From Candidatus Nanosyncoccus sp. (GTDB lineage: Bacteria; Patescibacteriota; Saccharimonadia; Saccharimonadales; Saccharimonadaceae), in assembly GCA_045649305.1 (NCBI GenBank), contig JAZRPR010000003.1, forward strand, positions 830-64,829: a stretch of 64,000 nucleotides of DNA, read 5' to 3'. This document shows positions 53,505-57,902 of this stretch, one piece after another; position 1 is the stretch's first letter, and each line of letters begins with the position of its first letter. Under the pieces are notes generated by a model that ran no database searches, had not been told where the DNA came from, and saw only the letters and a list, made by a program, of their open reading frames with translations. The position numbers and the translations under genes were made by a program.

Positions 53505-53993
53505 CTACTTAAGGTTTTTCACAAACTTCACGCCACTATTGTCGAGATTCTCAAATAATTCTACTGTCTCATAGTTTTTCATCTCATCCTCCGAGACCGA
53601 TTCTAGACGCTTGAACATCGCCTCCATCTCGTCTTCTGGAATTTTACGAGCGCGCGCACGATTGTTCTGGAGGCAGAGCTCTTTTTTGGCGCGTACGATA
53701 ATCAAATGGAAGGTGTAATCCGGGAAGCGTTCGATAAACCAATCGCGATCGGCGCGAGATGGAGAATTAGTGTCGACCAAAATGTCGGCTCCGTCCTCCA
53801 TGGCGGTGCGAATGGCGATTGCAAAAGCCTCCCAAACCCGTTCACGATGTTTGTGAATTAGGTCGGAACCAAAAAATACAGCATAAAAATCTTCAATCGA
53901 AAGATGGCGCAAATTACGCTCCCTTGCAAGCCTTGTCGCGAGCGTCGTCTTGCCGGCCCCACACGGTCCAGTCATCAAAAACAAGTTTGCCAT
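53505..53993 (-). CDS. P-loop kinase (AAA_33 / polynucleotide-kinase-like)
   Basis: GPCGAGKTT, DTNSP.RADR, RN.AR.R.IPED.M lid pattern. Confidence 0.75.
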   Translation of the reverse strand: MANLFLMTGPCGAGKTTLATRLARERNLRHLSIEDFYAVFFGSDLIHKHRERVWEAFAIAIRTAMEDGADILVDTNSPSRADRDWFIERFPDYTFHLIIVRAKKELCLQNNRARARKIPEDEMEAMFKRLESVSEDEMKNYETVELFENLDNSGVKFVKNLK

Positions 53994-54031: not shown

Positions 54032-54108
54032 GGATCTTTAGCTCAGTTGGCTAGAGCGTACGATTCACATTCGTAAGGTCACTGGTTCGAGCCCAGTAAG
54101 ATCCACCA
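54032..54108 (+). tRNA. tRNA-Val(CAC)
   Basis: GGATCTT/AAGATCC acceptor, TACGA-TTCACAT-TCGTA, encoded CCA; terminator AATCGGC/GCCGATT at 54120-39. Confidence 0.96.
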
Positions 54109-54232
54109 AATTATAAATGAATCGGCATTTTGGCCGATTTTTTATGGGAAACTTTCTGTTGAGCATCCAAAAAACTATTTGTGCCGATGCTACAATGGAC
54201 GATGAATAAGAAATATGATATAATCTTACCTA

Positions 54233-55315
54233 ATGGAGAAGAAGCCACAGGTTATCAACGTCGGCGATGTATTAGTCGAGTTTAAAAGACCGGTTTCTGA
54301 ACCCCCTTTTAAAAAGATCACCATTAAATACCCTTCTAGGCTGGATGCCGCTTGTACCGATCCTGGAAAATTATATAGTATAAAACCAAAAGATAATATT
54401 TTTCCAACAGGACAGATTAATTTTTGTGTTAATATATGCAAAAAAATTACCGTAGAGCCAAGAGAAGATGATGCTATTATTGTTACCGGCAATTATGGTC
54501 GAACAGTTTTGGTCAAGCATGCTGCTATGCTAATGCAGAAAGCCCTAAACATAACTACTGGTTTTTCCATTAATATAGACGCGAGCCTGGATCTAAGGCA
54601 TTGCGGCCTAGGTTCGAGCGCGTCAGCTATACAGGGCGTAGGTGCTGCGATTAATGAATTATACAATAACCCGATAAAGCCAATGGACTTGATTAGATAC
54701 CTTGCCGGCAATCATGCCGAAGAAATAGATGGGGATAACGAGCATCTTGTGTTCGTACAATCGGTTGGTGGTTCTGGAGTCTGCGGGCATTATGCTGGTG
54801 GACTAATCATTATGACTGGTAGAGCAGTACCCATAGTAAGGGTAGATTTGCCAAAAGATTTAAAAATCGTTTTCGGCATCCCAAATCAATATTTGCACCC
54901 TGACGCTAACACATTGATCACAGATGAAATTATGACATCAGAAAGTTTTAAGAAAGCCAGTATGGATTACTCAAAAGAAATTGCATATAGACTCTTGAAC
55001 GACGCTATCCCAGAGTTAGTGGATGGAAATTTCAAACCGATGAAGGAATTTATTTTTGACTATCGCTGGGATATGGGTAGTATAAAAAACTGTTCTTATG
55101 CATATCCTGGCATCGTCGATTTAGCGGAAAAGATGAGGCCACTAAGAAACGATAACGATATAGACTTTATTTTTCTCTCTACGGCAGGTCCTGGATTTTG
55201 CATAATCACCAAAGATATAAACAAAGCCGAAAATATTTTCAGGAGACTAGATATGAAAACTTTTGTCACAGATATTCATAACGGTAAATATCAAATTATT
55301 GAAAAAGTTAAATAA
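54233..55315 (+). CDS. GHMP-superfamily protein, beta-RFAP-synthase-like
   Basis: HCGLGSSASA (GHMP motif), N-terminal YPSRLD (cf. PSRLH), C-terminal STAGPG loop. Subfamily call is inference. Confidence 0.7.
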   Translation: MEKKPQVINVGDVLVEFKRPVSEPPFKKITIKYPSRLDAACTDPGKLYSIKPKDNIFPTGQINFCVNICKKITVEPREDDAIIVTGNYGRTVLVKHAAMLMQKALNITTGFSINIDASLDLRHCGLGSSASAIQGVGAAINELYNNPIKPMDLIRYLAGNHAEEIDGDNEHLVFVQSVGGSGVCGHYAGGLIIMTGRAVPIVRVDLPKDLKIVFGIPNQYLHPDANTLITDEIMTSESFKKASMDYSKEIAYRLLNDAIPELVDGNFKPMKEFIFDYRWDMGSIKNCSYAYPGIVDLAEKMRPLRNDNDIDFIFLSTAGPGFCIITKDINKAENIFRRLDMKTFVTDIHNGKYQIIEKVK

Positions 55316-55328
55316 AGAAAGGAGCAAG

Positions 55329-55895
55329 ATGATTTATTTGACGTCAAATCCAGACAAAATGCGAGAAGCTAAGGAGTTCTTCGGGAAAAAATATGGTCTT
55401 GAGGTCGAAATACTAAATCCGGATTTCGAACCGGTGGAAATACAAGCCTCAACGTGCGCCGAAGTGGTCGCTTATACGGTTAAGGATGCCGCAAATCGAT
55501 TAGGAAAAGCGGTTGTAAAATCTGATGCCGGATTTTACGCCGATGCGCTCGGTGGGCTACCTGGCCCATATAGCAAGTTCTTTGATAGGCAGATTGGCGT
55601 AGAAAAATTTCTACATATGCTCAAAGATGAAACTAACCGTAAGGCAAAGATTGAGCATTGTTGGGCCTATTGTGAACCAGGTAAGGAACCAAAAGTATTT
55701 ATTGGCGGCAGCGAAGGCACGATTGCTATGGAAGAGTCTGGCAAAAGTAGTCGCTGGGTAGATAAATTCTTTATTCCCGATGGCGAGTCTAGGACAATTA
55801 GTGCCATTCGTGATGAAAATTATGAAGAGTCCAACAAATACTGGGGCAATGCAAAACAACAATTAGTCGATTATTTATTAAATAAGGAAAAGTAA
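55329..55895 (+). CDS. Ham1/ITPase-fold NTP pyrophosphatase, divergent
   Basis: TSNPDKMRE, VEIQ, SDAGF..DALGGLPGPYSK, F.G..EG.I. Start ATG 55329 after AAGGAG. Confidence 0.85.
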   Translation: MIYLTSNPDKMREAKEFFGKKYGLEVEILNPDFEPVEIQASTCAEVVAYTVKDAANRLGKAVVKSDAGFYADALGGLPGPYSKFFDRQIGVEKFLHMLKDETNRKAKIEHCWAYCEPGKEPKVFIGGSEGTIAMEESGKSSRWVDKFFIPDGESRTISAIRDENYEESNKYWGNAKQQLVDYLLNKEK

Positions 55896-55897
55896 GG

Positions 55898-57112
55898 ATG
55901 AAATATTCAATAAAAGACTATCCAGACAAAGATGGGTTTTATGGCAAATATGGGGGCAGATTTCTTTCTCCAGAAATGGATGAGGAATTTAAAAGAATAA
56001 ATGATTTTTATCAAAAAATAAGAAACGATGCTGAATTTATCAATGAACTAAAATATATAAGAAAACATTATCAGGGCCGCCCAACGCCAATTACGTATGC
56101 TAAGAATCTTAGTGATAAACTCGGCGGAGCTGCCATTTATTTAAAGCGCGAAGACCTTAACCACACTGGCGCCCATAAATTAAACCACGCTATGGCGTAT
56201 GCTTTAGTAGCCAAAAAGATGGGCAAAACAAAAATTATCGCTGACACCGGCGCTGGTCAACATGGTGTCGCAATGGCCGCCGCCGCAGCATACTTTGGCA
56301 TGGAATGTGATATTTATATGGGCAAAGTTGATGCGGAAAAAGAGGCACCAAACGTTGATCGTATGAAAATAATGGGCACGAATGTTATTGTGGTCGAAGA
56401 TGGAGCTGGCAAATTAATAGATGCCGCAGCCGCGTCTTTTGCGGCGTACGAAAAGGACTACAAGCGATGTTTTTATCCAATTGGTTCTGCACTCGGGCCA
56501 GCTCCAATTCCCCAAATGGTTAGAGATTTTCAGTCTATTGTCGGAATAGAAGCCAAAGAACAGTTTAAGGAAATGACTAATAATAGTCTGCCCGACAAAG
56601 TAATAGCTGTAGTCGGCGGCGGTTCTAACGCTATGGGGCTATTCAGCGGTTTTCTTGAAGAGGAAGATGTCGAACTTGTTGCAGCCGAGGCATTAGGCAG
56701 AATGAAGAACGGGGAAGAAGAGCGGGTAGGGGAACATGCGGCAACGGCCACATATGGCGAGTACCGTACGATGAGTGGGTTTAAAAGTTTAGCTTTGGCC
56801 AACGAAGATGGAACTCCGCACCCTGCATACTCTGTTGCATCCGGCCTTGACTACCCGGGCCTTGGGCCAGAATTGGCATACCTTAAAGAATTGGGCAAAG
56901 TCCATTTTGAAACAATAAATGACGAGGAAGCGATTGGTGCATTCTACCAACTGTCAAAAACCGAAGGAATAATCCCTGCTTTAGAGTCTTCTCATGCGCT
57001 AGCGCTAGCTATGAAAATGGCCCCAAGCCATCCAGGAGAAGCATTCCTAGTAAATCTTTCCGGACGTGGCGACAAGGATATAGACTTCGTATTAAACGAA
57101 TACCGTCAATAA
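55898..57112 (+). CDS. trpB: Tryptophan synthase beta-subunit homologue (TrpB1-type), Asp at the Glu109 position
   Basis: LKREDLNHTGAHKLN (PLP Lys94), ADTGAGQHG, GGGSNA, GLDYPG.GPE, IPALESSHA, NLSGRGDKD. Confidence 0.9.
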   Translation: MKYSIKDYPDKDGFYGKYGGRFLSPEMDEEFKRINDFYQKIRNDAEFINELKYIRKHYQGRPTPITYAKNLSDKLGGAAIYLKREDLNHTGAHKLNHAMAYALVAKKMGKTKIIADTGAGQHGVAMAAAAAYFGMECDIYMGKVDAEKEAPNVDRMKIMGTNVIVVEDGAGKLIDAAAASFAAYEKDYKRCFYPIGSALGPAPIPQMVRDFQSIVGIEAKEQFKEMTNNSLPDKVIAVVGGGSNAMGLFSGFLEEEDVELVAAEALGRMKNGEEERVGEHAATATYGEYRTMSGFKSLALANEDGTPHPAYSVASGLDYPGLGPELAYLKELGKVHFETINDEEAIGAFYQLSKTEGIIPALESSHALALAMKMAPSHPGEAFLVNLSGRGDKDIDFVLNEYRQ

Positions 57113-57274
57113 TCAAGAATATAGTTAATTGGTTGCAGCAAACGACAAGTTAATTATTTTGATGACTATGAGCATGTTTGTGAAAACTTGCAAAATATGC
57201 TATAATATAGGACATAGGATTGGCATTCTGGCAATTTAGCAACGAGATTACGTTAAGGGGAGGTGACGCTATCT

Positions 57275-57862
57275 ATGTCCAGAGAACGAAAGAGGGTGCC
57301 CGAGGGGATTGTATTTTTCTCAGGGTATCATGGTGTCGGAAAGACATATACCGCAACTGCCATGCTCGAAAGTTTTAACGCCAGAATTATAGATTGTGGA
57401 CCACTTATACGGACTCTCTTTAATGAAAGTGGCTTTAATTCTTTCGAAGGCTGGGCGCAGAATATGAAACTAAGACTCGGCTGTAAATGGGACGACGAGC
57501 TACTACTTACGGCCATCAAAGACCGTATTTCTTCAGAAGAGTTACTGTTCATAGTGGGCAACAGAGACATCGAAACTATTCTGTTTCTGTCAGAAAGATT
57601 GCCGCACAAGAATCCGTCGTTGATTCTTTATCTAGAGAAGCCAGTTCCAGTAATAAAAGGTGGGTATGAGCTACGTACAAAAGCGACCTTGACGGATAAA
57701 GAATTTGAAAAAATCTTGCATTCTGGACCGGACAAAAAACTTGGCTTAGTTAGGCAATATGTTGTCGAACATCCAGAGCACTGTAGGCTTATCTACGAGG
57801 AAACTTACGGCAACAATTCGATTGCAGAGGCTATAGCCTTTGTAAAGGAAAAATATCAGTGA
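57275..57862 (+). CDS. P-loop nucleoside/nucleotide-kinase-like protein
   Basis: FFSGYHGVGKT, then IIDCGPLIR. Own TGcTATAAT promoter and GGGGAGG SD; ATG 57275 preferred. Confidence 0.65.
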   Translation: MSRERKRVPEGIVFFSGYHGVGKTYTATAMLESFNARIIDCGPLIRTLFNESGFNSFEGWAQNMKLRLGCKWDDELLLTAIKDRISSEELLFIVGNRDIETILFLSERLPHKNPSLILYLEKPVPVIKGGYELRTKATLTDKEFEKILHSGPDKKLGLVRQYVVEHPEHCRLIYEETYGNNSIAEAIAFVKEKYQ

Positions 57863-57873
57863 ATGCCATTCTC

Positions 57874-57902
57874 AACACGGGAGACTTCTCCCGTGTTTTT
57901 TT
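57874..57902 (+). terminator. Intrinsic terminator
   Basis: AACACGGGAG-actt-CTCCCGTGTT + T-run. Confidence 0.8.

Follow-up and report, generated by a model that had tools for sequence, protein, structure and literature searches.

What does the β subunit of tryptophan synthase (TrpB) do when nature has replaced its catalytic glutamate with aspartate? The question is raised by a stretch of 64,000 nucleotides (the window) from contig JAZRPR010000003.1 of Candidatus Nanosyncoccus sp., in which a TrpB carries Asp at the position of Glu109 in the Salmonella typhimurium enzyme (St numbering) and of Glu104 in the Pyrococcus furiosus enzyme (Pf numbering). The answer that we favour, and which we regard as about evenly poised between right and wrong, is that the protein is a neofunctionalised, TrpA-independent TrpB that would still generate the aminoacrylate from serine, but would add it to a nucleophile other than indole and would be tied to a pathway for a nucleotide analogue. 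The argument starts from three features, in which PLP stands for pyridoxal 5'-phosphate.

55898..57112, plus strand: Asp-type TrpB of 404 amino acids (TIGR00263, 472.2 bits; TrpB matches in the PDB; clade analysis).
56177..56179, plus strand: codon for Lys94, which binds PLP (St K87, Pf K82), placed by alignment; Lys in 43/43 clade members.
56243..56245, plus strand: GAC, the codon of Asp116, at the position of the catalytic Glu109 (St) or Glu104 (Pf), from the HMMER alignment, codon reading and metagenome contigs.

The Asp codon lies in the triplets gct gac acc (56240-56248), which read A115-D116-T117 inside KIIADTGAGQHG. D116 stands 22 residues past the PLP lysine K94 of the motif HTGAHK, a spacing equal to that between K87 and E109 in Salmonella and between K82 and E104 in P. 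furiosus, and in the HMMER alignment it pairs with Pf E104, the equivalent of St Glu109. The preliminary description, made from the bare sequence, had placed an Asp codon here, and both the open reading frame and the alignment prove it correct to the base. Judged by its sequence, the window protein is a member of the TrpB1 family: it passes the TrpB equivalog model TIGR00263 (472.2 bits against a cut-off of 392.45; 472 bits in the search of its own genome), contains the COMM domain, has a length near that of known TrpB1 proteins, and finds its closest solved structures in LBCA-TrpB (E 2.5e-120) and P. furiosus TrpB (2e-116). Membership of TrpB2 was considered and rejected, as the scores fall far under the cut-offs of both models (TIGR01415, 168.5 against 518.85; NF009057, 170.7 against 366) and the protein is clearly inside TrpB1.

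Is the Asp real, and how common is it? Distinguishing GAC from the Glu codons GAA and GAG had been proposed in the preliminary description, and the contigs that three independent ruminant-gut runs (X1, X2 and X7) yielded across 56243-56245 all read GAC, with zero alternative base. GAT is the codon in 16 related loci, and the adjoining codons for Ile, Ala, Thr and Gly likewise vary synonymously across these loci and the window. Because independent contigs agree and related loci vary synonymously, the Asp is no sequencing error, an explanation that is also rejected by the dozens of homologues that carry it. Because GAT and GAC alternate while neighbouring codons turn over synonymously, the residue is, to judge from the codons, under purifying selection. 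Asp is found in all 43 full-length members of one clade, drawn from Saccharibacteria, Microgenomates and one Oscillospiraceae metagenome-assembled genome (MAG), and over 40 protein clusters, which span many samples and several lineages of the candidate phyla radiation (CPR), have Asp in intact frames of 400-410 amino acids. Outside the clade, the 73 other close homologues all have Glu, as do 73/73 of the GTDB loci and all 25 other Patescibacteria TrpBs with a readable motif (401 species sampled). Among the representatives of clusters made at 50% identity, which fold the Asp clade into Glu-type clusters and are thus useful only for sampling the position widely, Glu is present in 115/118 and Asp in 0, the exceptions being Gly, Ala and one fragment. 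A literature search (E109D, E104D, TrpB in Saccharibacteria) found no natural Asp variant, and no account of a natural Asp-type TrpB, or of the four-gene cassette described below, was found in the searchable literature.

Two of these exceptions are of interest in themselves. P0208 (593 amino acids) has Gly at the catalytic position (CGTGAGQHG) and an N-terminal extension of about 230 residues, and P0306 (1378 amino acids) has Ala (ATGAGQHG) and also bears Na/Ca-exchanger domains; both could be further natural nucleophile-switched TrpBs, or fusions of gene models.

The border between the two residue types is sharp. When the 120 closest protein clusters are considered at full length, those with at least 66% identity have Asp and those with at most 64% have Glu, with the sole exception of P0008. 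This 94%-identical cluster reads Glu and differs from the Asp-type P0003 only by T111S, I113V, A115G and D116E; it is probably an assembly chimera in which part comes from a Glu-type TrpB, or else local gene conversion has acted over the highly conserved motif. In a maximum-likelihood tree the Asp sequences are monophyletic (Shimodaira–Hasegawa-like approximate likelihood ratio test, SH-aLRT, 100; stem length 0.30) and sit inside a well-supported grouping of CPR solo TrpBs of the Glu type. Because the Asp clade is monophyletic, the tree indicates a single origin of the Asp followed by conservation.

In engineered TrpBs, the residue at Glu109/Glu104 is known to switch which nucleophile is preferred. 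In the canonical enzyme Glu109 hydrogen-bonds the indole N1-H, stabilises the developing positive charge and so activates indole N1 (PMC9512447). Around it, the catalytic machinery for PLP and serine is retained: the window protein has the PLP lysine, the carboxylate loop TGAGQHG, the phosphate loop GGGSN, D305, E350 and S377 (St numbering, here and below unless marked Pf), and within the clade H86, K87, the T110-H115 loop, GGGSN, D305, F306(Y), E350 and S377 are kept in 42-43 of the 43 members. The nucleophile's route to the active site, in contrast, is altered, the exchanges at T165, K167, C170, H195, Y197 and F280 lying on the indole tunnel and helix H6. Clade-specific changes comprise, besides E109D, T165K, K167I, C170(V) to Ala, H195A, Y197(F) to Ile, F280(H) to Ser and Val to Ala at position 297, and are joined by Pf272 Gly to Arg or Ala, Pf281 to Ala and Pf290 Ala to Arg, Lys or His. 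Most of them give smaller side chains and several bring a positive charge (T165K, Arg at Pf272, Arg, Lys or His at Pf290), from which we infer a wider and more basic path of access into the active site. Among the positions concerned or near them, C170 lies on the tunnel wall, Y279 and F280 form the hydrophobic tunnel boundary, K167 contacts Y279, and P194 is at the α-β interface (PMC5573416, PMC8187860, PMC9512447). Two motif changes near the indole channel that had been pointed out beforehand fare differently: in LHG to MSG, the His-to-Ser exchange is clade-specific (Ser in 43/43 against His in 72/73), whereas GQI to GTP, although present, is not, its Pro being common to all Glu-type solo relatives. 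The 'Res6' residues associated with stand-alone function in LBCA-TrpB (PMC11917138) were also compared; only part of them are present (E, T and S match, the rest differ), and they are uninformative on the Asp.

Could this remodelling simply be a consequence of life without TrpA? A profile search of the 0.72-Mb genome (42 contigs, 94% complete) detected neither TrpA (PF00290) nor indole-3-glycerol phosphate synthase (PF00218), and TrpB itself is present as a single copy by the TIGR00263 search. Five other Asp-type genomes were searched, four of which have no TrpA, and the fifth only a sub-threshold match of 19 bits. The missing partner, which the preliminary description had singled out, is thus confirmed for this genome but is not distinctive, and was rejected as a special feature: TrpA is also missing from the genomes of close Glu-type relatives (Catonella morbi, Eubacterium yurii, Peptoanaerobacter stomatis and a Christensenellales MAG), and a Glu-type copy in Saccharibacteria likewise stands alone. 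The whole subfamily looks like a set of TrpA-independent enzymes, most simply indole salvagers. Since the Glu-type solo relatives retain K167, V170, H195, F197 and H280, the remodelling is tied to the Asp clade and not to the loss of TrpA, and the idea that the tunnel changes result from that loss was rejected for the same reason.

The gene neighbourhood is the strongest clue to the role of the Asp-type TrpB, which forms a four-gene cassette with the genes for a GHMP-fold, a Ham1-like and a P-loop protein.

54032..54108, plus strand: tRNA-Val (CAC), directly upstream of the cassette, found by ARAGORN; context, and a possible integration landmark.
54196..54224, plus strand: site resembling a promoter (extended -10), closely upstream of the GHMP-like gene; a consensus match only.
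54233..55315, plus strand: GHMP-fold protein of 360 amino acids, resembling ForT and beta-RFAP synthase (PF00288; AlphaFold2 and Foldseek).
55329..55895, plus strand: Ham1/ITPase-fold protein of 188 amino acids (PF01725, 96 bits).
57263..57862, plus strand: P-loop protein of 199 amino acids with a nucleoside-monophosphate-kinase fold, the fourth cassette member (homologues, AlphaFold2, Foldseek).
57874..57897, plus strand: terminator-like hairpin (10 bp, 6 of them GC, then a T-run) after the P-loop gene, closing the unit.

The genes are separated by 13 bp (GHMP-like and Ham1-like), 2 bp (Ham1-like and trpB) and 150 bp (trpB and P-loop), with no terminator-like hairpin between the last two; promoter-like sites in the region are no commoner than in shuffled sequence. 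All four are found in each of the 11 CPR Asp-type loci with enough flank, among them those of Saccharibacteria in samples from sheep and chimpanzee, of Candidatus Nanosyncoccus alces, of a Shapirobacteria MAG and of two MAGs of CPR size that bear the labels Bulleidia and Gammaproteobacteria. Across these loci the identities drop in parallel (TrpB from 95 to 74%, Ham1-like from 95 to 64%, GHMP-like from 92 to 64%, P-loop from 86 to 46%), and the P-loop gene changes its place, following trpB in Saccharibacteria and lying between the GHMP-like and Ham1-like genes in Microgenomates. Because the identities fall together while one gene moves, the comparison of sequences points to linkage kept by selection and not to a frozen accident. 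The two oddly labelled MAGs (L043, Bulleidia sp.; L046, Gammaproteobacteria) measure 0.6 and 0.9 Mb and have the CPR cassette, and their public taxonomic labels are probably wrong. A 392-residue TrpB neighbour that seemed common to L002 and L011 was discarded, as the two proteins are unrelated.

The cassette behaves as a mobile accessory unit. It is present in only 1/401 sampled Patescibacteria species, is missing from genomes of the same genus and the same family, and has a GC content of 41.4% against 46.5% for the window. In two loci from chimpanzee-associated Saccharibacteria (L006 and L007, 2922-3788 and 9094-13224) a phage-type integrase flanks it on one side and a set of phage genes on the other, the latter with an N6/N4 methyltransferase, a SAM-synthetase N-terminal domain, a terminase and a portal protein, which suggests that the cassette is carried there on or beside a prophage. 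With regard to expression, a bovine-gut metatranscriptome holds two short contigs of a 92-96% identical relative that correspond to window positions 55304-56094, from the Ham1-like gene into trpB; they are a weak hint of transcription across the Ham1-trpB junction, where carry-over of DNA is possible, and are too weak to claim co-transcription. Just upstream of the tRNA-Val and outside the conserved cassette, the minus strand (53505-53993) encodes a P-loop kinase of 162 amino acids (AAA_33), whose top NCBIfam match, well under the cut-off, is the L-seryl-tRNA(Sec) kinase family.

What could the three partners do? The GHMP-like protein belongs to a small and tight family of 72 clusters, whose sources leave it unnamed or call it 'predicted sugar kinase' (Joint Genome Institute, JGI). 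Its AlphaFold2 model (predicted local distance difference test, pLDDT, 93.6) finds its best Foldseek match in the PDB in ForT (8aoz/6yqq, E 1e-15, template modelling score 0.67/0.74), with homoserine kinase and other GHMP kinases close behind. ForT is the C-glycoside synthase of formycin biosynthesis, which depends on phosphoribosyl pyrophosphate (PRPP), and its residues R19 and H99 bind PRPP (PMC8183095). The GHMP-like family has two invariant residues that, by strand and turn register, may be their counterparts: R36, midway along the first long strand ('YPSRL'), and H123, which precedes the GLGS turn ('RHCGLGSS'). The protein is hence a candidate PRPP-dependent glycoside synthase by its modelled fold, with a kinase as the alternative. 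For the P-loop protein the model (pLDDT 90) is matched best by AK5, AK1 and UMP/CMP kinases; it shows the nucleoside-monophosphate (NMP) kinase fold with Walker A and the NMP-site motif Gxx(x)R, and GxHxxGK[TS], GPxxR, GNR and R138 are invariant in all cassette variants, while no Pfam ADK match above the cut-off was obtained for the window protein. The Ham1-like protein, a putative NTP pyrophosphatase, scores 96 bits on PF01725 against a cut-off of 22.5, does not reach the equivalogs TIGR00042 (101.5 against 145) and PRK14821 (125 against 203), and has archaeal Mj0226 (1b78) as its best sequence match in the PDB.

The same three genes also occur with other company. On further CPR contigs, distant GHMP-like members keep the P-loop and Ham1-like genes while the fourth enzyme is swapped, at the following triad loci with other partners.

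L121: 4950-10568
L122: 4956-9012
L123: 4266-8332
L124: 4241-8238
L125: 2549-7654

Two soil CPR contigs have a haem enzyme of the PrnB/IDO superfamily (PF08933, 109 and 108 bits) together with one to three methyltransferases dependent on S-adenosylmethionine (SAM), and three other triad contigs carry a protein of the peptidase-U32 family, accompanied by one of the Asp/Glu-racemase family, by a methyltransferase, or by both; no PLP enzyme is present in these cassettes. PrnB and IDO act on tryptophan, and the U32 family includes oxygen-independent ring hydroxylases. On that account enzymes that act in aromatic or tryptophan chemistry occupy the variable slot, which in the gut CPR lineage holds the Asp-type TrpB. 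The recurring partners thus point to an aromatic or tryptophan-related substrate of the cassette, and the triad of GHMP-like, NMP-kinase-fold and Ham1-like proteins looks like a modular, uncharacterised cassette. In the window's own genome no PrnB-like and no U32-like gene was found; since the PrnB search matched no control genome, that absence is weakly supported.

How might these pieces work together? Under the preferred reading the enzyme would bind PLP, convert L-serine into the aminoacrylate, as it should because all PLP/serine residues are conserved, and still perform β-substitution on serine. The physiological nucleophile would not be free indole, but more likely a bulkier compound of aromatic or heteroaromatic kind, possibly anionic, which the cassette makes or uses, and of which an aryl or indole-type ribotide, or its base, is a candidate; the product would be a β-substituted alanine forming part of an uncharacterised nucleotide analogue. 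Being shorter by one methylene, the Asp would draw its carboxylate back from the nucleophile site, which would suit an N-nucleophilic or N1-substituted partner that needs no activation of N1-H. The account of the engineered E109D enzyme in the preliminary description, impaired with indole and shifted towards indoline-type N-nucleophiles, agrees with what Brzovic and colleagues (1992) reportedly found. That a natural E-to-D change suggests a non-indole nucleophile was already put forward in the preliminary description, and it now finds partial and indirect support in the clade-fixed Asp, the long stem, the tunnel and H6 changes, the kept PLP/serine residues, the cassette and the triad's other partners.

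A more specific version, which we consider unlikely as it stands, would have the nucleophile be a ribotide delivered by the ForT-like enzyme and the product an amino-acid-nucleotide hybrid, a 'tryptophan-like ribonucleotide'. Here the ForT-like enzyme would make an aryl or indole-type ribonucleotide (C- or N-linked), the widened, more basic tunnel would admit its ribose-phosphate tail, the withdrawn Asp carboxylate would accommodate a nucleophile lacking a free N1-H, and the kinase-fold and Ham1-like partners would set the phosphorylation state of the product; cassettes of the PrnB/IDO and U32 types would reach related products from imported tryptophan.

Several observations weigh against a departure from indole or against its link to nucleotides. 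The residues of the indole sub-site, H115, L166 and F306(Y), are kept in the clade, and the engineered E109D enzyme of Brzovic and colleagues (1992) was reportedly slowed, but not dead, with indole, so that indole could still be used; the tunnel positions, for their part, have been mapped by alignment and from the literature. The ancestral role of the solo subfamily was probably indole salvage. A basal Asp-type copy, in the Oscillospiraceae MAG, is free of cassette genes for 8 kb in each direction, and therefore the Asp arose, or persists, without the cassette. As for the GHMP-like protein, it reaches only 16.8 bits on the RFAP-synthase equivalog NF040726 (cut-off 328), and its sequence profile is nearer to homoserine kinase (E 2e-7) than to ForT (only E 0.1-0.15). 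Moreover, in the cassette-bearing Saccharibacteria genomes G000 (the window's own), G401, G402 and G405 no canonical PRPP synthetase was detected, only weak matches of phosphoribosyltransferase type, and the PRPP-dependent reading is therefore weakened, although two Microgenomates-type cassette genomes do have a PRPP synthetase.

The rival that survives best, a serious and plausible one although we think it less likely, is that the enzyme condenses gut indole, or a simple substituted indole, with serine to supply the symbiont, itself unable to make amino acids, with tryptophan for protein synthesis or for the neighbouring genes, the Asp and the tunnel changes reflecting drift or fine-tuning to the absence of TrpA. 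The nearest relatives are indeed solo Glu-type TrpBs in TrpA-less genomes, Saccharibacteria copies included, and the habitat is the ruminant and primate gut, where indole is plentiful; yet Glu is near-invariant and has been kept in those very relatives, whose presumed job is the same. The retention of the PLP/serine residues and of the indole-flanking H115 and F306(Y), like the solitary Asp-type copy of the Oscillospiraceae MAG, would also fit an enzyme that still uses indole, but drift explains neither an Asp that stays fixed while its codon turns over synonymously, nor the long stem, nor a set of coordinated tunnel changes that is absent from the Glu-type solo enzymes. A dedicated supplier of tryptophan would be sensible if the related PrnB/IDO cassettes consume that amino acid, whereas salvage leaves unexplained why three nucleotide-type genes are strictly co-inherited with this trpB across distant CPR lineages.

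Less probable by some distance is an altered electrophile or an altered direction of the reaction, in which the GHMP-like kinase would make O-phospho-serine or a similar compound for TrpB, as used by TrpB2, or TrpB would act as a lyase that frees an indole-type base. The homoserine-kinase-like profile of the GHMP-like protein and its NCBIfam thrB matches speak for the first of these, as a GHMP kinase next to a fold-type-II PLP enzyme recalls the logic of ThrB and ThrC, and the gained basic residues (T165K, Arg at Pf272, Arg, Lys or His at Pf290) could bind a phosphate; the lack of a canonical PRPP synthetase in the Saccharibacteria hosts is in line with a kinase too. Against this, the TrpB scores far under the TrpB2 models (168 bits against 519), its serine-binding residues, D305 included, are unchanged, the triad also occurs without any PLP enzyme, beside PrnB-like, U32-like and methyltransferase genes, for which a serine kinase gives no reason, and the GHMP-like protein is structurally nearest to ForT, with an Arg and a His placed like PRPP ligands. 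Finally, that the Asp is a sequencing or assembly artefact, or the gene a decaying one, is exceedingly improbable: P0008 and P0003 show that assemblies can disagree at the catalytic motif, but independent metagenome contigs read GAC, more than 40 clusters carry Asp in intact frames, and the catalytic PLP residues are invariant in the clade.

[quoted passage not shown] If it is right, a natural lineage with a fixed Asp and a rebuilt tunnel shows how evolution has retuned TrpB chemistry, and offers a ready-made scaffold for new nucleophiles; if the enzyme merely salvages indole, Asp can replace a supposedly essential Glu in vivo. In either case the Asp-type TrpB provides an easily assayed PLP enzyme as a handle on an uncharacterised cassette of ultrasmall symbiotic bacteria, which may make a nucleotide-like metabolite not yet described.

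When compared with known systems, the window protein shares its fold, family and PLP/serine residues with TrpB1 enzymes such as those of S. typhimurium and P. furiosus and LBCA-TrpB, but differs from them in having Asp for Glu109 and changes at T165, K167, C170, H195, Y197 and F280; its gene lies in a nucleotide-type cassette and not in a trp operon, in a genome with no TrpA or other trp gene. The O-phospho-serine-dependent TrpB2 likewise stands alone without TrpA, and is set apart by the family scores. Closer at hand are the solo Glu-type TrpBs (P0046-P0051; Catonella, Peptoanaerobacter), the immediate phylogenetic neighbours at 56-64% identity, which have R141K, S190, the G-x-P segment, the lack of TrpA and gut or oral habitats in common with the Asp type, but keep Glu109 and show no linkage to GHMP-like, P-loop and Ham1-like genes. 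To the family of ForT, PyfQ and beta-RFAP (RHP) synthase the cassette may be related through its GHMP-like member, by the ForT-like fold match and the placement of Arg and His, and the logic of C-nucleotide pathways, with an aromatic base plus a ribose phosphate, together with enzymes that handle nucleotides, would then be shared; to our knowledge, no known C-nucleoside cluster contains a TrpB. The engineered variants StTrpB E109D and PfTrpB/TmTrpB E104G/E105G are altered at the same catalytic position, the Gly variants being used for non-indole nucleophiles, and one structure among the window protein's PDB matches, 8egy, is the tyrosine synthase TmTyrS1, an engineered variant of the E104G/E105G type. 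In contrast to these, the present change is natural, is to Asp and not to Gly, is fixed in a clade and comes with further natural changes, all known from sequence. The natural Asp-type TrpB is thus a new form of a known kind of enzyme, set in an uncharacterised cassette.

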